From positions 480,001-544,000 of the forward strand of contig CAVSHR010000004.1 in the NCBI GenBank assembly GCA_963727625.1: 64,000 nucleotides of DNA, written 5' to 3'. The notes beneath the pieces were generated by a model, which was given only the letters and a program-made list of their open reading frames with translations, had not been told where the DNA came from and searched no databases. Shown here one piece after another: positions 3,673-14,165 of the stretch (within the stretch, counting starts at the first letter, position 1; every line of letters starts with the position of its first letter). The stretch is from an uncultured delta proteobacterium. Its GTDB lineage: Bacteria; Desulfobacterota; Binatia; UBA9968. The position numbers and the translations under genes were made by a program.

Positions 3673-5118
3673 TTACGCCCAATAAGTCGTCCGATCGATG
3701 GGAATATGCTGCAAAATTTCTCCCGGCACGAAGTCTTCCAGCTTGATTCGTTTCATGGCTTCGCCGGGGCATTTCGATACCGGCGAGAACGGCCGGTCCA
3801 GCGGCTTGGTGGCGTCGACGATCATCGCGGAAGTGCGCCGCGGATGTTCCATCGAGGGATCGATAAGACTGCCGCGCATAATGTCTGGAATGATGGAAAT
3901 CTGCCGGTGCGGCTGCACTCGGGTCGCCAGGGCCCAGAGAATCTCGGTCGGATTGTAGACATCGATGTCCTCGTCGAAGACAAAAACGTTTTTCGCCCAA
4001 TCCCAGGTGAGCGCCGCCGCCGCGGCTCGCCCCGGGTCGCCTTCGGACATTTTTTTCATCGCAATAAAAACATTGAGCAGCGCGTGCCGTCCGCTGGCGC
4101 AAACCGCCTGGACTCCCGGCACCGCCTCTCGGCAGCGGCGCAGATAGGCGCCTTCGCGCGCCAGATCCATCCAGGGCTTGTCGCCTTCCGGCGTGAGAAT
4201 CGACATATGCATGGCACCGCGCCGATGGGTGATCGCGCGCACTTCGTAATGAGCCGATTGCTGATAGCCTTGCAAACCCAAATAACCGTTCACCTCGCCG
4301 AACGGTCCTTCGACCAATCGCTTGCCGGGCAGCAGCGCGCCCTCGATAACGATCTCGGCGTCCGCCGGCACCAGCAATCTCTCGCCCCAGATTTCCGACG
4401 GGACGAGCCGCAGCGGCTCCTGCATATAACCGCCGATAATATCGTACTCGCTGATCTCGAACGGCCCACCGTAACAGGCGCCCATCTGGTAAGCGGGATG
4501 ATGTCCAATCACCGTCGCCACCGGACACTCCTCGCCGGCCTCTTCGTAAACGCGAAAGATCCGCCACATATGCTGCAGCGTCATCAAAAACCCGGTGTGG
4601 TTTGGGTCTTTCACCTCCATGCGATGATAGGAGCAGTTGTAAACGCCGCTCTGCCGGTCCCTAGCGACACTGGACATGTCGATATACGGCCCGCCGTCCA
4701 TTTCATGGTGGCGCAAAAGCGGCAGCTCGTAGAGATCGACATCGTCGCCTTTACGAATAATTTCTTTCACCGGCGCGGCCTGTCTGCTCACGATCACCGG
4801 GCCAATCCTATTCGCTTCCCGGCGCAAACACTCCCGCGCCATCTCGGCGCGATCCATTTCGGGCGGCACGCCGAGCGCCGTTTGAACCTTTTTCTGCGAG
4901 TTCTCCGCGCTCATGACCAGCTTCATGTCCGTCACGTGACCATGGGCGTCGAGCGGATTTTCAAAAATGAGCACCGGAAATTTTTTCAGAGCCCCAAGCT
5001 GCTTGACGATCGCCGTGACGTCGTAGGTCAAAGGGTTTACCGTTTTTGCGATCGACACCACATCGCTCGGATATGCCCGGCGCATGTCGTTTAAAAACGT
5101 TCGTAGCGATTTCGACAT
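3673..5118 (-). CDS. UbiD family (prFMN-dependent) decarboxylase
   Basis: DGGPYI, YNCSYHRM, VPADAEIVIEG, EGPFGE, DEDIDV and WALATRVQP motifs. Start reassigned to MSKSLRTFL because the upstream extension is a translated REP. Confidence 0.9.
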   Translation of the reverse strand: MSKSLRTFLNDMRRAYPSDVVSIAKTVNPLTYDVTAIVKQLGALKKFPVLIFENPLDAHGHVTDMKLVMSAENSQKKVQTALGVPPEMDRAEMARECLRREANRIGPVIVSRQAAPVKEIIRKGDDVDLYELPLLRHHEMDGGPYIDMSSVARDRQSGVYNCSYHRMEVKDPNHTGFLMTLQHMWRIFRVYEEAGEECPVATVIGHHPAYQMGACYGGPFEISEYDIIGGYMQEPLRLVPSEIWGERLLVPADAEIVIEGALLPGKRLVEGPFGEVNGYLGLQGYQQSAHYEVRAITHRRGAMHMSILTPEGDKPWMDLAREGAYLRRCREAVPGVQAVCASGRHALLNVFIAMKKMSEGDPGRAAAAALTWDWAKNVFVFDEDIDVYNPTEILWALATRVQPHRQISIIPDIMRGSLIDPSMEHPRRTSAMIVDATKPLDRPFSPVSKCPGEAMKRIKLEDFVPGEILQHIPIDRTTYWA

Positions 5119-5185: not shown

Positions 5186-5735
5186 TCAATGTTGATGTTC
5201 CGGCTCCGACACCGCCGGATTCTCCTGGTCGAATTCCCACTGCGCCGGATTATCCAGAATGTATTGTCGAATCCGGTTCAGGGATTCGTCATCCCGAATA
5301 ATATGTTCGTAGTAATTGCGCTGCCAGACGGGTATTCCCGGTGTATCGCGCAGAACGTTGAGCTGTTTTGCAGAAATCATTTTAAATCGCCCGAGGATCT
5401 TCGATAACAACATGTGGCGCCGACCTACAATACGGGTGGGTGACGATTATTCCATGCATGTGATTGGGCATGACGACGAACGCATCCAATTCAACACCTC
5501 TATAAAAGTGCGACAAACCATCCCATACGGACTGCACGATTCGCCCAGCCTCGTTCAATTCTATCTGACCATCGACAACGTTGCCGAACAAACATTCCCC
5601 CTCCCATCTGCATAGCGTGACATAATACGCCCCGGCCTGCGAATAATCGTATCCCTGCAAACGAATCGACCGACGTCTCCGTTTCTGGTCGATTGGATCC
5701 TTCGCGATTGCCGTCACGTACGCTCCGTTACACAA
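5186..5735 (-). pseudogene. REP-associated tyrosine transposase (RAYT, Y1/HUH), split across two frames
   Basis: N-half 5382-5735 has RRSIRLQGYDYSQAGAYYVT and VVMPNHMHGII (HUH). C-half 5186-5413 has ILGRFKMISAK, WQRNYYEHIIRD and YILDNP. The frame break is at about 5400-5430. Confidence 0.88.
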
Positions 5736-6031
5736 TCCGCATTCTCAATCGCGCCATTTGCTGGGCTCAGCCCCCTCGCCAGCTACGAAACCATTTTGCC
5801 AGAACCTGAATGTCGTGGCCCAGCGCGATTACGCGGGTCTCTCATACGGTTGCTACCTAACACGCGAAGAATCGTCTAAACAACACCGTCGAATCCGTCA
5901 CAAAACACTCGACACCGGGCATCGATGTAGTTCGAATTCTCCATTCTCAATTCTCATTATCGATTCCCTCCCCCTCTTGCACCCCGGCCCATGCCTGAGC
6001 TATTGCAATGGGAAGAAAAGGAGCCAGATCA

Positions 6032-7114
6032 ATGGGCATAATCGAACGAACCTATGGCAAGGAAACCAACACCGTCATCAACGAAGTTTTGATCTCGTCG
6101 GACTCGCATGTCATCGAGCCCGCGGGGCTTTGGCAGAAACAATTGCCCAAGGCTTATCAGGATCGGGCCCCCGATTTTGGCGGGCAAAGACCCAACGACA
6201 CCCCCGGCGGCGCCCAGGACAAGAACAAGCGCATCTCCGAAATGGCCGCCGACGGCGTCAGCGGCGAAGTGCTCTACCCGACCCATGGCTTGAAGTGCAT
6301 AAGCCTCGACGATCACGAGTTGGAGGTGGCCTGTTGCCGGGTCTATAACGACTGGCTCATCGACTACTGCAGCGCCGCCCCCGATCGGCTCATCGGTATC
6401 GCCATGCTGTCGATGTACGACATTGACGAAGCGGTGAAGGAGCTGGAACGCTGCCGTAAGGCCGGCATGCGCGGGTCGGTGATCTGGCAGGTGCCGCCGC
6501 CAGAGCTCCCGTTCTCCTCGTCGCACTACGACAAGTTCTGGACCGCGTCTCAAGAACTCGACATGCCGGTCAATTTGCACATCTTGAGCGGCCACGGCTA
6601 CAGCCGCAGCCGCTCCCTCGGGCAGGGAGACACCCCCACCGGCATGACCGCCGAGCACAATAGCGTCAACATGAAACTGTTCCAGTCGGTCGATAGCCTT
6701 TACGATCTAATCTATTCCGGCGTGTTGGAGCGTTTTCCCAAACTGAAGATCGTTCTGGTCGAAAACGAGCTGGGCTGGATTCCCTTTGTCCTGGAACAGT
6801 GGGACTACTACTTCAAGCGCCATGGCGCCAAGCGCGAAGGGCTGAACATAACAAAACCGCCGAGCGAATACTTCCACAAGCAGATTTTCACCACGTTCTT
6901 CAACGACGCCGTCGGCGGCCATATCCTGTCGTGGTGGGGCCAAGACAACTGCATGTGGTCAAACGATTTCCCGCACGGCAATTCGACCTGGCCCAATTCC
7001 CGTCAGGTTGTCAGCCGCGACCTGGGCAGTCTACCGGCCGACGTACGCGCCAAACTGGTGCGCGAGAACGTCGCGCGGGTTTATAACATCCCGGTGCCGA
7101 GCCCGGTGCAGTAA
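6032..7114 (+). CDS. Amidohydrolase_2 family protein
   Basis: ISSDSHVIEP, EVLYPT, YNDWL, PVNLH, ERFPKLKIVLVENELGW and MWSNDFPH motifs; AAGGAG RBS before the ATG at 6032. Confidence 0.9.
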   Translation: MGIIERTYGKETNTVINEVLISSDSHVIEPAGLWQKQLPKAYQDRAPDFGGQRPNDTPGGAQDKNKRISEMAADGVSGEVLYPTHGLKCISLDDHELEVACCRVYNDWLIDYCSAAPDRLIGIAMLSMYDIDEAVKELERCRKAGMRGSVIWQVPPPELPFSSSHYDKFWTASQELDMPVNLHILSGHGYSRSRSLGQGDTPTGMTAEHNSVNMKLFQSVDSLYDLIYSGVLERFPKLKIVLVENELGWIPFVLEQWDYYFKRHGAKREGLNITKPPSEYFHKQIFTTFFNDAVGGHILSWWGQDNCMWSNDFPHGNSTWPNSRQVVSRDLGSLPADVRAKLVRENVARVYNIPVPSPVQ

Positions 7115-8120: not shown

Positions 8121-9551
8121 TCAATCAATGCCCGCCAGTTCCTTGGCCAGACGAACGAACGGGCTCAGATCATAGGCGCTTACGAGCCGCTGTTTGTTGG
8201 TGGCCAGGCTGGCGACGTTGTACATCTCAAACAGGAGCTGGCGCGAGCCGAACGAATCGCAGGCGTATTCCCACGCAAGTTTCAACATGCGAAACATTTC
8301 CTGCGTGCGCTCGTTCTCCCCGACAAAATAACGCCGGATTTGCTGACCGATCTCGGGGTTGTTCATGTCGGCCTGGCTCGGAGACATCAGGATGCCGGAG
8401 CCGCACAGCTCTCGTATCATCTGCAACATCTTGGGGTAGCCCTCGATCGAAAAGATGCGCGCAGCTTGCCCCGGCGTCCAATCGGGCAGGGTCAAGCCCG
8501 ATTGCGAGCGCACCGGGTTCATTTCGGCGGCATGGATGAATGCTCTCATCGTCTCCATGTAAACGATCGCGTCGGCCAGGGCTATTTGCACATGCGGTTG
8601 TTTCGAAGTGCCGAGATATTCGGCCATCGCGGCGCAGATCCCGAGCAGTACTTCTGCTTTGACCGCCAGCCGAACCAAAACATACCAGGGCCCAATGCCC
8701 ATCGCTCCCTGGAAGAGTCGCGCATAGAGACTCGGATCTGCGGGATGAGTTTGACGCAGATAGAACACGCGATCCCAGGGAATAAACACGTCGTCGAACA
8801 GCACCATCGCGTCCATCTCGTCCCAGTGCGGATTTAGCGGATGATCCTCGGGGTTTGGCGACGTCAGCGACTCCCGGCAGATGAGCTGGATGCCTTGGGT
8901 GTTTACCGGGACCGCGAAATACACCACCTCATCGGGCTGGAGGTTGGGTCTTGGCTGGGTCAGGCAAAGGATTTCATTGGCGTAGGGCGCCTGCGTTCCC
9001 ACTCCTTTGGCCCCTCGAACCACGATCCCGTCGGGCCGCCTCTCCACCACCCTCAAGTATTCCTGCTTGGCTTCCGGATGGCTTCGGTGATGAAACGGAT
9101 CGTTGAAAATAGTCGCGATGCTCAAATCGTTTTCGCGGCAATGCTCGAAGTAGCGCGTCACGTTCTCCGCGAAGCTCGGATTTTCTTCGCCGAAGACGTC
9201 GCGGCTGTCGTGCAACCCCAAAACCACCGTAGCCAGATGCTGCGGCAGACGTGCCGCCACCCCTCCGGCGCGGCGCACCAGGAACTCGTACATCTTGCGC
9301 TGCCGGATCAGATCTTCGATCGAATGGGGCAAAAGATAAGCGAGGCTTACCCGCTCGCCCGTCGCCGGTGAAATCATTGTCAGCAGCTCCTGATAGGCGG
9401 GATCATGCTGCAAGTCATAAACCGCGGCCACGCTGCGGGCGCAGCCCGCCAAACGGGGATGTTCGGTGACGTCCACCGATTCGCCCTGCAACCACACACG
9501 GCGCCCATCCCTCAGGCTATCGAGATATTGTTCTCCGCGACGTATCGGCAT
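8121..9551 (-). CDS. 4-hydroxyphenylacetate 3-hydroxylase family oxygenase (HpaB-like)
   Basis: YLDSLRDGRRVWLQGE, DGIVVRGAK, GIQLICRES, DEMDAMVLFDDVFIPWDRVF and FGSRQLLFE motifs. Confidence 0.9.
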   Translation of the reverse strand: MPIRRGEQYLDSLRDGRRVWLQGESVDVTEHPRLAGCARSVAAVYDLQHDPAYQELLTMISPATGERVSLAYLLPHSIEDLIRQRKMYEFLVRRAGGVAARLPQHLATVVLGLHDSRDVFGEENPSFAENVTRYFEHCRENDLSIATIFNDPFHHRSHPEAKQEYLRVVERRPDGIVVRGAKGVGTQAPYANEILCLTQPRPNLQPDEVVYFAVPVNTQGIQLICRESLTSPNPEDHPLNPHWDEMDAMVLFDDVFIPWDRVFYLRQTHPADPSLYARLFQGAMGIGPWYVLVRLAVKAEVLLGICAAMAEYLGTSKQPHVQIALADAIVYMETMRAFIHAAEMNPVRSQSGLTLPDWTPGQAARIFSIEGYPKMLQMIRELCGSGILMSPSQADMNNPEIGQQIRRYFVGENERTQEMFRMLKLAWEYACDSFGSRQLLFEMYNVASLATNKQRLVSAYDLSPFVRLAKELAGID

Positions 9552-9763
9552 TTACCCAGCTCTCAATAGAATTTTTGAGGTAATCAAACTCAACTCGACC
9601 GCCTTCGAGGCGAACCGTTCAGACTCGATCGAAACTATCCGATAACTTGACTCGAAACAATGTCAATTTGCGGGGAACGGAGTTGAGTTCGAAATGGCGC
9701 CCCTTGCACCAATGCGATGCCGGACTGGCGACTTGATGCCAGGCTAAAATAGGATACCAAGGA

Positions 9764-9823
9764 ACTTAACGCTCTGGTTCAGCGGCGGCGCGGAGTGCTA
9801 TCCGCTTCAACCGTTTGTTCGGC
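9764..9823 (-). mobile_element. Integron attC site (59-base element)
   Basis: Coding strand reads GCCGAAC-AAACG-GTTGAAGC-GGATAGCACTCCGCGCCGCC-GCTGAAC-CAGAGC-GTTAAGT. This gives R'', a 5-nt spacer, an 8-nt L'' with an extra base, a 7-nt L', a 6-nt spacer and R' = GTTRRRY. It is 60 bp long and 30 nt after the RT stop. Confidence 0.85.
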
Positions 9824-9853
9824 GGTTTTCCACTGACGTATCCTCGTCCTCGG

Positions 9854-11350
9854 TTAGTACATTGCTGCATTCTGCTTGAACAATTCCACTTCTTCTGGCT
9901 GAACCACTTCTGTCGCGTCCCCTGCATCAGCAATGACAATCTTGCGGCCATCTAAGGCTTTCTTGAGTGCCTCGCTTGCGATCCAGCTAGACTCCCAAAG
10001 CTGAGATGATGCCCCATTCACGACCTGACAAATAGGTTCGTTACTCTCGAACATGATGCCAACGGACTTAGGTTGCGTGACACGCTGGAGCCAAATTTCA
10101 AGGTAACCGTTGTACGGGACTCGCGCCATCTTTTCGCGTACTCTTGTCCACAAGCGCACCTTCTCTTCATTTGGCGCAAGTGAGATAAGATGGCTCAGAA
10201 TGCCGGCCACAGCCGGAAACGTCGAGGGTGAAACAAACGCAATATCTGTCGCAATCGCGACCTGTACGTCAAGGTCGTCGGGAGCTTCAGTCTGTTTTGA
10301 AATATTGGTGTGAAACTCACCAACCAACCTTCGCAAAGCTCCGCTATTTGGAAACCTCTGACCGAATAAATGCAGCCTTAAGAGCTGCTTTTGAATTGTC
10401 TTCGCGTTAGTTGTTCCGAGGTCTTGTAGCTCAATGCCGGCTAATTTATCTGGTTTGATCGATCCTTCCACTACGTTTCTGGAGGAAAATGTTTTTGATA
10501 CTCCGAGCCTCATCCCTACCGCTCGTAGCTTATCGCTGACTATCTTCAGGACCGCTTCGGCACGTTCGTCGCTATTTGCAAAAATTCTATAGTCGTCCCT
10601 ATATCGCAGTATCCGGATGTCAGTATTTCCCGCGAGAGCTAGGTTAATCTGCTCATCCACGTATCCAAGGACAATTTCCGCGATGAAGTCCATGAGGACC
10701 GATCCTTGCGCAATACCGTTGGTCTGGCCGAAACGACTAGCTTGGATATGGGAATCGATCTTGTTGCCGAGCAGAGCTTTATTCGTCTTTTCTTCCTTTG
10801 CTTTCGATAAGCCGTGCAACGCCCAAGCAATACTATGGGTGTACAGAGAGCCATAACAGTCGGTCACATCGGTATGGAAAACATGACTGAACTCCAGTGA
10901 ATAAGTCAGCGACCTTTGCTCAACGCTCTGCCACCAGCTTTTGATCTGAGTCGCAACATCCGTCTGGTGATCGACCGACATCACGGGCGCGCTGCAACAA
11001 TCAACTACACCGCCCGCAAATTCTTTGAGCCGCGCTCTTATGCTTTCCCAGTTCGCCTCCTCACAAATCACATTTACTAACGAGACGTAAATGGCCGGAT
11101 GTATCAACTCATAAGGCCGCCAGGCAAATTTTCCGTCCTTGTTTGCAATAAAGTTGTAGTTTACGTTCTGAAGTTCGTTGGGATTTGCGTTCTTAAACTC
11201 GGCATAGTTCCTGCCATTAAGAGCGGTTGAGACGTTATTCAGTATTGGTTCAAAACTGATGTAATTGGGCAGATCCCCGTTGAAGTAGCTGCTGCCCTTC
11301 AGAAAATGGCCTCTTGCCTCTTCGTTGGAAAGGTCAATCAATCGCTTCAT
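9854..11350 (-). CDS. Abi-P2-like abortive-infection reverse transcriptase (protein-primed DNA polymerase family)
   Basis: RT motifs TDVTDCYGSLYTHSIAW, QTNGIAQGSVLMDFIAE and catalytic RYRDDYRIF. The N-terminal LSNEEA..FL...SY...LP.YI.F, KDGKFAWR and WWQSVEQRSL segments resemble the recalled Abi-P2 sequence. It has a helical C-terminus and is visibly more AT-rich than the flanks. Confidence 0.85.
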   Translation of the reverse strand: MKRLIDLSNEEARGHFLKGSSYFNGDLPNYISFEPILNNVSTALNGRNYAEFKNANPNELQNVNYNFIANKDGKFAWRPYELIHPAIYVSLVNVICEEANWESIRARLKEFAGGVVDCCSAPVMSVDHQTDVATQIKSWWQSVEQRSLTYSLEFSHVFHTDVTDCYGSLYTHSIAWALHGLSKAKEEKTNKALLGNKIDSHIQASRFGQTNGIAQGSVLMDFIAEIVLGYVDEQINLALAGNTDIRILRYRDDYRIFANSDERAEAVLKIVSDKLRAVGMRLGVSKTFSSRNVVEGSIKPDKLAGIELQDLGTTNAKTIQKQLLRLHLFGQRFPNSGALRRLVGEFHTNISKQTEAPDDLDVQVAIATDIAFVSPSTFPAVAGILSHLISLAPNEEKVRLWTRVREKMARVPYNGYLEIWLQRVTQPKSVGIMFESNEPICQVVNGASSQLWESSWIASEALKKALDGRKIVIADAGDATEVVQPEEVELFKQNAAMY

Positions 11351-11516
11351 TTGGCCACAGACCTTTTCATGACGTCGACCTATCTAGTGAACTGCCGATT
11401 CGGTCCGCGGGTTATTATGGAAGCCATCCTCTGCGTCGAAGTCAGGAATCAGTTACAGGAATCAGCCTCAGATTTTTACGAATCGATTATCTAGTGATGT
11501 CTTCGGCGCCAATCTG

Positions 11517-11912
11517 TCACTTCCGAAAATCTTCTGCCCTCAACTCGATCGGCTTTCCATGCGGCGTTCGGTGCATGGCGCGCTCCCAGGCTCGGAAGTG
11601 TTCCGTGAGTGCCTGCTTTGAGGTCGCGCCTTTTTCCGCGACCATGCGTTCGAGCGTTGCGAGCCAGTGGTGGTAGTAGGTTTCGCCGGTGTCGGGATCG
11701 CCGGCGGCTTGGGCTTTTTTGATTTCTTCGCCAAGCATAGCGGACCACTCGGTCCAGGCGAACAATCCTTTTTCGTAGAGCGCCAGCCCCATTGCGAAGG
11801 CGTGAGCTTCCCAGGGCGCGCGAAAGACGGGACCGTTCTCGTCGCGCGGAATGCCCGGAACCGCGTCTGCCGCTTTGCGGGCGGCTTCGGGTTCAATCAA
11901 CTTTTCAGACAT
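11517..11912 (-). CDS. Nitrile hydratase accessory protein (P14K/NhhG-like)
   Basis: GPVFRAPWEAHAFAM, YYHHWLATLE and RTPHGKPIEL motifs; downstream of nthAB. Confidence 0.9.
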   Translation of the reverse strand: MSEKLIEPEAARKAADAVPGIPRDENGPVFRAPWEAHAFAMGLALYEKGLFAWTEWSAMLGEEIKKAQAAGDPDTGETYYHHWLATLERMVAEKGATSKQALTEHFRAWERAMHRTPHGKPIELRAEDFRK

Positions 11913-11959
11913 GTTTTAGACCAGATCCAAACGACGCGAAGTAAAACCTTTCGTGAACA

Positions 11960-12199
11960 TCACGCAACGTTCTGCATTTTCGTTACGAAATCCCGTCCGG
12001 ACGTAGGAGGAGGCAATACCCTTCCCTCTTTCTTGTAAATCGCAATCGCCTCTTCGACGATCTCGCAGAGTTCGTTAAATACTTCTTTTTCATCGTCGCC
12101 GTGGTAGCCGCCTAAGATCAAGCCGGGCGCACTGCCGACGTAGCATTGATCTTGGACCGACCATTCGACGATTTTTGCATACTTTGCGCTGTGCTTCAT
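11960..12199 (-). CDS. HicB-like antitoxin domain protein (orphan)
   Basis: KYAKIVEWS..DQCYVG.APGL...G.HGDD...V..EL..IVEE...GRVLPPP is the HicB N-terminal fold pattern. Confidence 0.75.
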   Translation of the reverse strand: MKHSAKYAKIVEWSVQDQCYVGSAPGLILGGYHGDDEKEVFNELCEIVEEAIAIYKKEGRVLPPPTSGRDFVTKMQNVA

Positions 12200-12208
12200 T
12201 TCTTTGAC

Positions 12209-12869
12209 TCAGGCATGTTCCAGATAAGGCTCAAACGCTTCAATGGAAACCTTCAATGTCGGCATCAGCGTCCGCGCCCCAAAGTTCCTGGGCATCGAAG
12301 CGCACGGTGTAAAGCCACTGGGGATCGTCGCCTTTGCCGGCCGCCACCGAGTCGGGAAAAGCGTGGGTGCCGTGCAGACGCTCGACAACGCCCACGTGGC
12401 CGCGTGCATAGCGCGGCAGGCGCGTGTGCGTCTTCGGGTGGATGTTCTTCGTGCGCACGCGATCATCGATTTTGAACTTGGCGGGTCCTTGGGCCGGCCG
12501 GTAAAACGAGCCCCGTTTGGTAACCTTTTCAATATCGGCCAATGCAAACGGGCCGCGGGCCAAATTCTTCGCCGGACGCAGCGCGTGCCCGGCTGCGACC
12601 TCGTCGGCGTCGATGAGACCGTGCTCGATGAGCAAGTTTTGATTGCGCAGGAACCACTTCTCGTAATATGAGCGCGTCAAATAGATCGACGGCGCTAACT
12701 TCTCGATGGTGTAGCGGCTGGTGTCGATGGTCCAGGCGCGGAAGACGCCGATGGCGCGGCTCATCGCCAGCACGCGCCCCTCCCAGCGATCATGAAAAAC
12801 CGGCTCGTTGGGCTTGGGCTCGACCTTGCCGAACCCGTCCATACCGCCCATATCGTGAACGCCGTCCAT
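12209..12869 (-). CDS. nthB: Nitrile hydratase beta subunit, frameshifted near the 3' end
   Basis: MDGVHDMGGMDGFG, YYEKW and HTRLPRYARG motifs. The ORF stops at 12240, while the conserved tail PTLKVSIEAFEPYLEHA is in another frame ending at 12209 (extra base near 12263). Confidence 0.9.
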
Positions 12870-13495
12870 CAGGCCACCTCGCTCGGTTTTTTCGCCAGGC
12901 CGGTGCCGACCATGGAGTCGCGCGTGACCAGCTTGGCGAGCTGCGTTTCACTCCAGCCTTCGGTTCCGGCCGGACGCATCGGCACGACCAGGTAGCGGGT
13001 CTCGGCCGTCGAATCCCAAACCCGAATTTCGGTCTCGGCCGGCAGCGTGACGCCGAAATCGGCCAATACCGAGCGCGGCTCCTTGACGACGCGCGACCGG
13101 TAAGCAAACGACTTGTACCAGGTCGGCGGCAGGCCGAGCACATCGGTTGGATAGCAGGAGCACAGAGTACACACGATCATGTTGTGCACCTGCGCCGTGT
13201 TCTCGACGGCGATCAGATGCTCGCCCACGTTGCCCACCTGGGGCGCGAGGCCGGCCACCGCCTTGCTCGCATCCTCGAGCAGCGCCGTGCGAAATCCAGA
13301 ATCGCTCCACGCCTTCGCCACCACCTGGGCGCCGATATGCGGGCCGATCTTGGTCTCGTAGAGCTCGACGATGCGGTCGAGCGCCGCCGTTTCGATATAA
13401 CCCTTCTCGACCAAAATGGTTTCGAGCGCGCGCACCCGCAAATCCATCTCGGTCAGATGGGAACCCTCATCATGATCGTGTTCGTGTGTCGCCAT
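12869..13495 (-). CDS. nthA: Cobalt-type nitrile hydratase alpha subunit
   Basis: VCTLCSCY metal motif (Thr/Tyr, Co type), LGLPPTWYKS..YRSR and VWDSTAETRYLVVPMRP; start reassigned to MATHEHDHD. Confidence 0.95.
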   Translation of the reverse strand: MATHEHDHDEGSHLTEMDLRVRALETILVEKGYIETAALDRIVELYETKIGPHIGAQVVAKAWSDSGFRTALLEDASKAVAGLAPQVGNVGEHLIAVENTAQVHNMIVCTLCSCYPTDVLGLPPTWYKSFAYRSRVVKEPRSVLADFGVTLPAETEIRVWDSTAETRYLVVPMRPAGTEGWSETQLAKLVTRDSMVGTGLAKKPSEVA

Positions 13496-13501
13496 AAGCG
13501 A

Positions 13502-13531
13502 AATATAGCCAAGGAAGCAGGCGGCATGCAA
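13502..13531 (-). promoter_or_regulatory. Putative sigma70 promoter for a leaderless nthA transcript
   Basis: TTGCAT-18 nt-TATATT, then 6 nt to the ATG; no Shine-Dalgarno sequence. Confidence 0.45.
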
Positions 13532-13778
13532 TCGGAACCCGAGGGCAACATCAATGGTGATTGGATGCGCCTGCCTCGATAGCCAGTCGATTGACCGTGC
13601 AAGCTTGGCTAGCCCGTCGCGTTGATGAAAACTACCACCACTGGCGCCGTGAATCGAATTATTTCCCAACCAAACTTCTATGCCCGAAGCGGCGGGATGT
13701 CTCTGGGAATTGGCCGGGGTCATGCACCCGGCTTTCCCAATGCGGCGGTTCGTCTTGTTGGGTGCCAGGCGGTACGGT

Positions 13779-14165
13779 TTATTTTCCGACCGGCAACCAT
13801 CGGGCGGCTGCATCCGCACTATCCTCGGGCCGTGTATTGAACGCAATTGCCGCGCCCGGCGCAGCCTTGTGGACGGCATTGATGACCGCTTCGAATAATG
13901 CCAGGCGCCGGGGCGGCAGGCGGACGCCGGCTCCGATTACAACGCAATCATAAGTCTTCGCTGCTAATTGATGCTCCACTGTCGGTCCAGCGGTTTCATC
14001 GGGCCGGATGTAACCCACGTCCGCCTCCCATCCCCGTTCAGCGAATTGCTTCAGCGCAACCGCAATGCCGGCGCGAACCTTTTCCGCGGTCATTCCCGGC
14101 GGCAAAGCAGGGTCGGAAAAATCCACGGTCGCTGGATCGTAACCAACGAGCAAAATCCGCGTCAT
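13779..14165 (-). CDS. Conserved hypothetical protein (small alpha/beta fold)
   Basis: 128 aa ORF with a GGAGGA RBS and plausible codon usage; YDCVVIGAGVR and AFNTRPEDS motifs. Confidence 0.75.
   Translation of the reverse strand: MTRILLVGYDPATVDFSDPALPPGMTAEKVRAGIAVALKQFAERGWEADVGYIRPDETAGPTVEHQLAAKTYDCVVIGAGVRLPPRRLALFEAVINAVHKAAPGAAIAFNTRPEDSADAAARWLPVGK

Follow-up and report, generated by a model that had tools for sequence, protein, structure and literature searches.

An AbiP2-family reverse transcriptase gene in a single integron cassette next to a nitrile hydratase operon of an uncultured Binatia bacterium

The window under analysis is the whole stretch of 64,000 nucleotides (nt) C4:480001-544000 of an uncultured delta proteobacterium assigned to the Binatia (assembly GCA_963727625.1, contig CAVSHR010000004.1; source genome G000), and it holds a reverse transcriptase (RT) gene and an adjoining attC recombination site, situated between three nitrile hydratase genes and an hpaB-type gene and all read from the same strand (Table 1). 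A sequence-only reading of the window had described an open reading frame (ORF) of 498 amino acids (aa), richer in AT than its surroundings and bearing the motif RYRDDYRIF, a 60-bp attC site 30 nt past its stop codon, co-orientation with the nitrile hydratase operon, and neither an integron integrase gene (intI) nor a cassette array in the 64 kb; all of these features were recovered. Each test by which that reading was to be refuted spoke for it: an attC model matches the site, the RT falls with AbiP2, and the RT is missing from the other genus genomes searched. It is likely, on the evidence given below, that the gene constitutes one intact AbiP2 RT cassette which was inserted by an integron integrase, is expressed by read-through from the operon and serves in defence.

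The reverse transcriptase cassette and its attC site

Table 1. Positions of the features discussed; numbers without a contig prefix refer to the window
Feature	Position	Strand	Remarks
hpaB-type 4-hydroxyphenylacetate 3-hydroxylase	8121..9551	-	Pfam HpaB_N, HpaB; downstream neighbour
attC site, 60 nt	9764-9823	-	begins 30 nt past the RT stop
attC boxes	R'' 9817-9823, L'' 9802-9812, L' 9776-9785, R' 9764-9770	-	R'' GCCGAAC, R' GTTAAGT; loop between L'' and L'
Whole gene cassette, 1,609 bp	9770..11378	-	28-nt leader, RT ORF, 30-nt spacer, attC to the crossover G
AbiP2-family RT ORF (P0001)	9854..11350	-	498 aa; stop codon 9854-9856
Leader and 5' junction	11351..11378	-	GG↓TCGACGTCATGAAAAGGTCTGTGGCCAA, then ATG
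Spacer, 138 nt	11379..11516	-	between nitrile hydratase accessory gene and cassette
Nitrile hydratase accessory (beta-like) gene	11517..11912	-	Pfam NHase_beta_N; directly upstream, co-oriented
Nitrile hydratase beta subunit	12240-12869	-	
Nitrile hydratase alpha subunit	12869-13879	-	
Intact intI	C4:370924-372081	-	118 kb from the RT cassette, same contig
Array attC sites	C4:364115, 365534, 369161, 369964	-	just 3' of intI (model R2)
Three attC sites	C4:791024-792442		beside intI remnant C4:790494-790583 (34 bits, 71-aa frame)
Two attC sites	C11:65984-68136		separate pair (R2)
Single attC sites	C4:1358084, C4:850960, C2:201723		R2; the RT site completes the 13

The GC content of the RT ORF is 0.46-0.51 as against 0.55-0.60 in its flanks and 0.566 for contig C4, a deficit of about 8 points relative to the surroundings and of 6-10 points relative to the genome. 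The protein matches the PADLOC AbiP2 profile with E 9.1e-193 and 639.5 bits over profile positions 4-487 of 489, and the scores for other PADLOC families are far lower (UG14 164.7, Drt6 151.6, Drt4 132.7 and AbiK 96 bits). Pfam RVT_1 is matched in the ORF, while the NCBIfam models for Drt4, Drt3b, group II and retron enzymes all stay well under their cut-offs, which bears out the earlier assignment to the Abi-P2-like enzymes and not to the retron or group II clades. The closest solved structure is that of the Abi-P2 polymerase (PDB 7R08; E 2e-72, residues 1-491).

Residue conservation was measured in an alignment of 66 rows, made up of the RT and 65 relatives. The YRDD motif occupies residues 250-253, and D252 and D253 are retained in 65 of the 66 rows; Tyr30 is retained in 59, the remaining seven being gaps from truncated ORFs. 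The Abi-P2 of Escherichia coli carries out protein-primed, template-independent DNA synthesis and protects against phages, and its Y61F exchange abolishes DNA synthesis, according to PMC9508834. Tyr30 would align with the tyrosine exchanged in Y61F, provided that the numbering of PMC9508834 is that of the deposited chain, and this was accepted since the chain numbering fits both tyrosines named in that text. The RT is thus a member, over its full length, of the AbiP2 family, which belongs to the class 1 Abi/UG defence reverse transcriptases, and it has the YRDD motif and a putative priming tyrosine conserved.

A single ORF fills the cassette and is oriented towards the attC site. Read on the minus strand from 9823 to 9764, that site consists of GCCGAAC-AAAC-GGTTGAAGCGG-A-(15 nt)-CCGCTGAACC-AGAGC-GTTAAGT; its predicted crossover lies between 9770 and 9769, and the 3' end of the cassette is the G of the R' box. 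At the other end the junction reads GATAGG↓TCGACGTCATGAAAAGGTCTGTGGCCAAATG (arrows mark junctions), and the leader can be aligned with that of cassette-borne relatives, which runs from TTCGGCGTCATGAGAAGG to ATG; the similarity begins at TCGACGTCATGAAAAGG in G000. The relatives' leader begins G↓TTCGGCGTCATGAGAAGG, with the junction G↓TTCGGCG, and its TTCGGC is the exact complement of GCCGAA in R'', as expected if the cassette closes into a circle.

As folding and Rfam did not identify the site, attC models were built from natural sites. The first covariance model (R1) comprised 15 attC sites located directly 3' of RT homologues in other genomes; the second (R2) comprised 11 sites without linkage to the RT, nine of them from other cassettes in RT-homologue loci and two from beside the host intI. 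The R-box and L-box structures of both were written by hand since RNAalifold returned no pairs on the first MAFFT alignment. R1 scored the window site at 34.7 bits (E 2.8e-5 in 102 kb) and ranked it as its top match in the 6.6-Mb genome, where 150 of 1,310 candidates were scored. R2 gave 35.3 bits (E 1.8e-7 in 82 kb with filters off; 1.5e-5 genome-wide), and its second-best match in the window reached 10.3 bits, so that the 64 kb contain a single attC. In a 12-row alignment (A4) the window site forms nine of the ten L-box pairs; across the 12 sites 80.4% of the stem cells are paired and 10 of the 17 pairs show compensatory changes, a covariation score that none of 500 shuffles reached. The window site is also closely similar to the attC beside the intI of the host genome. 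The 60-nt site is an attC. The Rfam scan of 9000-12500 gave nothing for attC and a chance match to a long non-coding RNA as its sole match. Two further approaches were set aside: a fixed pattern CCGAAC..GTTAAG brought out no repeat family genome-wide, and a home-made arm-complementarity score did not separate real attC sites from background.

Relatives of the cassette and the integrons of the host genome

RT relatives were gathered by scanning one genome per species, which yielded 158 stretches; the best 80, at 44-90% identity, were kept. An attC was called where R1 or R2 matched with E up to 0.05 within 150 nt of the RT, and it was counted where the RT matched in full and no less than 150 nt followed it; 68 of the 72 full-length loci qualify, the contigs of the other four ending too early. 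Such a site was present in 18 of the 68, and its share rises with identity to the RT: all seven loci at 81% or more, nine of 15 at 78% or more, and nine of 53 below 78%. In the nearest homologues the attC is spaced from the stop codon as it is in G000. All 30 R1 matches and all 52 R2 matches in the 80 loci fall on the RT strand, several loci carry arrays of 3-5 attC matches, and intI fragments occur in four (L030, L031, L057 and L103), that of L031 adjoining the RT and pointing away from it. The motif TTCG[GA][CT]G precedes the start codon by 25-35 nt in 14 of the 72 loci.

The nearest known relative shares 90% of its aa with the RT. The labels of the closest relatives (81-90% aa) include Proteobacteria, Planctomycetota, Nitrospirota, Nitrosomonadales, Gallionellaceae and Thermoguttaceae. 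Two of the RT loci, L028 with a Planctomycetota label and L029 with a Nitrospirota label, have identical sequence flanking the RT cassette; probably one of the two bins holds a misplaced contig, and the phylum labels of short metagenome-assembled contigs therefore need care.

Four metagenome runs, from four different studies, have contigs that span the RT with an identity of roughly 90-97%. Contigs of runs X1, X2 and X5 lose their similarity to the window at 9765-9768, one contig matches the attC alone (9767-9825), and in another a different attC comes after the RT, the match having a loose end just short of 9826 (break at 9825/9826). The breaks fall 2-5 nt from the predicted crossover at 9770/9769 and also near the edge of R''. 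Among the sequencing runs listed there was no RNA run, and none held more than 0.16 of the sampled words.

With regard to an integrase, none of the 14 TIGR02249 matches in the genome lies within the window. The search of the whole genome for intI and related attC sites, which the sequence-only reading had proposed, returned an intact intI and 13 R2 sites (150 of 2,466 candidates scored). For this intI the TIGR02249 score is 467.8 bits (cut-off 265); the gene covers positions 1-314 of 315 without stops, is not adjacent to the RT cassette, and has an array that runs away from the window. The earlier proposal of an integrase acting in trans accordingly stands as far as the window lacks intI; the enzyme need not have come from elsewhere, since an intact intI with its array on the same contig means that "in trans" can be read as the genome's own integrase. 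One array cassette (C4:369152-369970) recurs at C4:1357356-1358173 with 98.5% identity over 820 bp, and that copy starts exactly at G↓TTAGGCC, ends in its own attC (50.9 bits) and has its ORF split into pieces of 204 aa and 110 aa. At least one other cassette of G000 has therefore moved out of the array, to a place about 1 Mb distant where its borders are exact.

The complete integron (C4:364115-372081) has at least four attC sites, with cassettes for a methyltransferase, a membrane protein and proteins without known family, and the stretches C4:790494-792442 and C11:65984-68136 are integrase-less cassette clusters. Other cassette proteins of G000 (221, 292 and 234 aa) matched no PADLOC or Pfam family. 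In the genus counts given here and below, which take in the unpublished genome G005 as one genome, intI is found above the cut-off in 9 of 31 genomes and with E up to 1e-30 in 15 of 31; R2 with E up to 0.01 finds 15 attC sites in G019, 15 in G014 and five in G021.

The junction in related genomes and the origin of the cassette

The RT was sought in the genus and was absent from relatives: none of 24 other genus genomes yielded the protein, and a DNA query with 8121-13879 matched the RT ORF in none of 30. Among 41 relatives the only other protein match was one of 22 bits to the palm domain, in G035, and the DNA query gave short matches to the attC, at 82%, in G003, G023 and G043. The adjacency of nitrile hydratase and hpaB is kept in three genomes, and the region upstream of hpaB, including TTAAGTTCC, is common to G000, G019 and G014. 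Between the two homologous flanks G019 has 233 bp only; G014 has 1.3 kb with a frameshifted luciferase-like monooxygenase; and G021 (L026:2041-4514, G021:C27) has 2.8 kb with an Xre-type antitoxin, a RES-domain toxin and two ORFs without family. The variable segment of G021 was considered as a cassette and rejected, as no attC above 6.4 bits was found in it.

Sequences resembling attC occupy the position of the G000 attC in G019 and in G014, though not in G021; they have the same end, G↓TTAA(G/A)TTCC, and score 13.4-15.5 and 7.6-8.8 bits respectively, at or near background. Between the nitrile hydratase stop codon and this position, the three genomes G000, G019 and G014 have unrelated DNA. In G045 two attC sites, scoring 27.2 and 28.2 bits, come after the accessory gene (89% identical) on the same strand. 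The insertion point had been taken for a secondary site, but it is not an arbitrary one: G045 has at least two cassettes after the same accessory gene, and weak attC-like sequences occupy the same junction in G019 and G014. Cassettes or attC-like sequences thus follow the nitrile hydratase operon in four genus genomes among those examined at the locus, which suggests that the locus took up cassettes repeatedly in this genus. The G045 cassettes (L133:2400-4208, G045:C40) hold ORFs without known families, with DUF3303 and histidine-specific methyltransferase genes beyond them.

The 138-nt spacer ahead of the cassette has no match in relatives at the locus and no second copy in G000 or in the RT loci. 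It was considered as a decayed attC and rejected, with neither a model match nor a hairpin (z +1.67 and +1.18). The 41 nt at its cassette end (11379-11419) turn up in other places before a G↓TT junction: G008:C56:218-258 matches 11378-11419 at 88% and continues on the minus strand with GTTAGGC, a canonical R' box, and two contigs of run X3 match only 11376/11380-11419/11420, with the similarity ending at 11380. A 33-nt pattern from the spacer has G000 as its sole match in the 31 genomes, the G008 copy differing by an indel. This short conserved sequence of 41 nt, ending at G↓TT ahead of a cassette, may resemble a sequence-specific attachment site more than it does an attC. The G008 copy (L135:205-400) is preceded by a 43-aa ORF, and its contig ends 210 nt further on.

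Taken as a course of events, the cassette would have left an array in another bacterium as an excised circle and passed from host to host. An integron integrase, most simply the host's own IntI 118 kb away, would then have inserted it, immediately past the nitrile hydratase operon, at the G↓TT of an att-like site. The RT is probably transcribed by read-through from that operon. This is proposed because the three nitrile hydratase genes are co-oriented with it and no terminator or promoter was detected in between: a simple consensus scan of the minus strand from 11517 to 11350 found no terminator-like or promoter-like site, and a weak consensus scan of 11351-11520 found no sigma-70-like promoter on that strand. 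By homology to Abi-P2 (PDB 7R08), the protein would form trimers or hexamers, prime on Tyr30 and make template-independent single-stranded DNA, and such synthesis would underlie abortive-infection defence against phages.

Several points weigh against this account. The 5' junction G↓TCGACG, between 11379 and 11378, has one T fewer than the canonical G↓TTCGNCG and differs from that of the relatives by the missing T and one further base. No recognisable attC or attI was found upstream of the cassette by R2 scan or hairpin test. No attC was seen in 50 of the 68 testable relatives, which means that members of the RT family occur outside cassettes as well. The sites on which R2 was trained had been gathered via R1, itself trained on RT-linked sites, and R2 is for this reason not fully independent. 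At its first base the internal loop between L'' and L' departs from the usual pattern, with G (top strand) in the window site against C in two others compared by eye, namely the attC beside the G000 intI and that of L027. The fold energy of the site is not better than that of shuffles (z -0.56 on the minus and -0.08 on the plus strand), nor is that of the wider 114-nt stretch on both strands, and thermodynamics alone cannot settle the attC question. Lastly, the likeness of the G019 and G014 attC-like sequences to the G000 attC is about 65% over its length, which equals that of the adjacent intergenic DNA. The fold energies would suit a fortuitous resemblance to attC beside an ordinary island-borne AbiP2 gene, and single attC matches are said in the IntegronFinder papers to be prone to false positives. 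That explanation is nevertheless close to refuted, with both models at about 35 bits (E 1e-5 to 1e-7), attC sites equally spaced from the stop in the nearest homologues, and an R'' box that fits the 5' ends of homologous cassettes.

The missing T and a spacer with no match in G000 or in relatives at the locus could also be expected if the gene arrived by homologous recombination of a larger transformed fragment, or on an unrecognised mobile element, with the attC as a passenger; PMC12614218 reports that the shuffling of cassettes in chromosomal integrons is driven by natural transformation. This route appears improbable, however, given that unrelated metagenome contigs lose their similarity so close to the predicted crossover, that the second G000 cassette has exact G↓TT borders, and that a Pfam scan of the 10 neighbouring ORFs found no transposase or phage integrase family. 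A more serious alternative, though still an unlikely one, is that the attC, and perhaps the RT cassette with it, is an old resident already present in the common ancestor of G000, G019 and G014, the RT having later been lost from the relatives by deletion or replacement while G000 retained it, with no recent insertion in trans. The level of likeness just mentioned is what would allow the attC to be old at the locus, the two relatives share its position and end, and the divergence of the RT from its nearest relative (90% aa) is similar to that of hpaB between G000 and G019 (92% aa). Against such long residence stand the GC content of the RT, still 6-10 points under the genome, the failure to detect an RT remnant in G019 or G014, and an attC that is intact in G000 while those of the relatives score at or near background; the unrelated DNA before the attC-like site in the three genomes is, moreover, what different cassettes would be expected to leave. 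Insertion of the cassette by an integron integrase remains the favoured account.

Known systems, significance and repeats near the integrase gene

The experimental demonstration of defence genes in integron cassettes dates, to our knowledge, only from 2025 and came mostly from Vibrio and clinical plasmids. They comprise the phage-defence integron cassettes of mobile integrons (BRiCs; Kieffer et al. 2025; preprint 10.1101/2024.07.02.601719) and defence cassettes in sedentary chromosomal integrons (Darracq et al. 2025) and in Vibrio parahaemolyticus (Getz et al. 2025), the latter two as listed in 10.64898/2026.03.17.712381. Like the cassettes described in 10.1101/2024.07.02.601719, the G000 cassette would be a compact single-gene anti-phage system of ORF plus attC, moved by an integron integrase, and it has homologues both inside and outside integrons. 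The terms "reverse transcriptase" and "DRT" do not occur in the available texts of 10.1101/2024.07.02.601719 and 10.64898/2026.03.17.712381. No paper joining "integron" with "AbiP2" or "Abi-P2" was found in the library searched; the articles of Darracq and Getz and the supplements may list one. In contrast to the published defence cassettes, whose carriers are mostly Vibrio or clinical plasmids, the G000 gene is an AbiP2 RT, stands as a single cassette 118 kb from intI and belongs to an uncultured environmental lineage.

The carrier of Abi-P2 in E. coli is the hypervariable region of a prophage. With this Abi-P2 of a P2-like prophage (7R08; Figiel et al. 2022, PMC9508834) the G000 RT shares full-length similarity and the PADLOC family. 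Both have a YRDD palm motif and a C-terminal helical domain. The G000 enzyme differs in being carried by an integron cassette and in being known here from its sequence.

Clusters of attC sites without an integrase, the CALIN elements reportedly named by Cury and colleagues in 2016, are said to be usually defined by two or more attC sites, and cassettes at secondary sites were reportedly described by Recchia and Hall in 1995. The G000 locus resembles both in having an attC without adjacent intI and a G↓TT end in ordinary chromosomal DNA. It departs from CALIN in that the site is one attC and an intact intI lies on the same contig, and from both in that the same locus is occupied, in related species, by other cassettes in G045 and by weak attC-like sequences in G019 and G014. 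Since defence cassettes are in print, and cassettes distant from the integrase or at secondary sites are reportedly known, the RT case represents a well-supported and tidy example rather than a new principle.

Even so, with this case the idea of defence cassettes takes in an RT immune gene, uncultured lineages of soil and sediment, and single cassettes remote from any integrase. An anti-phage RT cassette so far from an integron would also illustrate how immune genes travel between very different bacteria. A genome with two single cassettes, one of them a copy from the array, offers a natural test case for whether a chromosomal integrase seeds distant sites, and the RT-attC unit, at only 1.6 kb, provides a compact and ready-made module on which AbiP2-type enzymes from non-model bacteria could be studied functionally. 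We advance only tentatively the joint proposition that the AbiP2 RT is among the most widely travelled integron cassettes and that the nitrile hydratase spot is an integrase-less docking site. The ORF-plus-attC unit may be present, at 70-90% protein identity, in genomes labelled Pseudomonadota, Planctomycetota, Nitrospirota and Chloroflexota, in a candidate-phylum bacterium and in a Binatia-like genome. If the proposition is true, integrons would be a main route by which a stand-alone RT immune gene spreads across phyla, and the docking site would be reused by different cassettes that are expressed from a catabolic operon and not from an integron promoter.

The surroundings of the host integrase gene show some further peculiarities. 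In the classical integron layout intI and the array are divergent; in G000 they are co-oriented. A 182-nt stretch occurs twice, 83% alike, just upstream of intI (L009:4029-4210 and 4911-5092, where L009 covers C4:368000-387999), each copy lying within a small minus-strand ORF. The hexamer GTTCAA recurs every 9 bases at L009:5226-5264, 5716-5759, 6027-6083 and 12846-12937, and also in L022 upstream of hpaB in G018; these arrays, often inverted pairs around small ORFs, look like a genus-wide repeat element.

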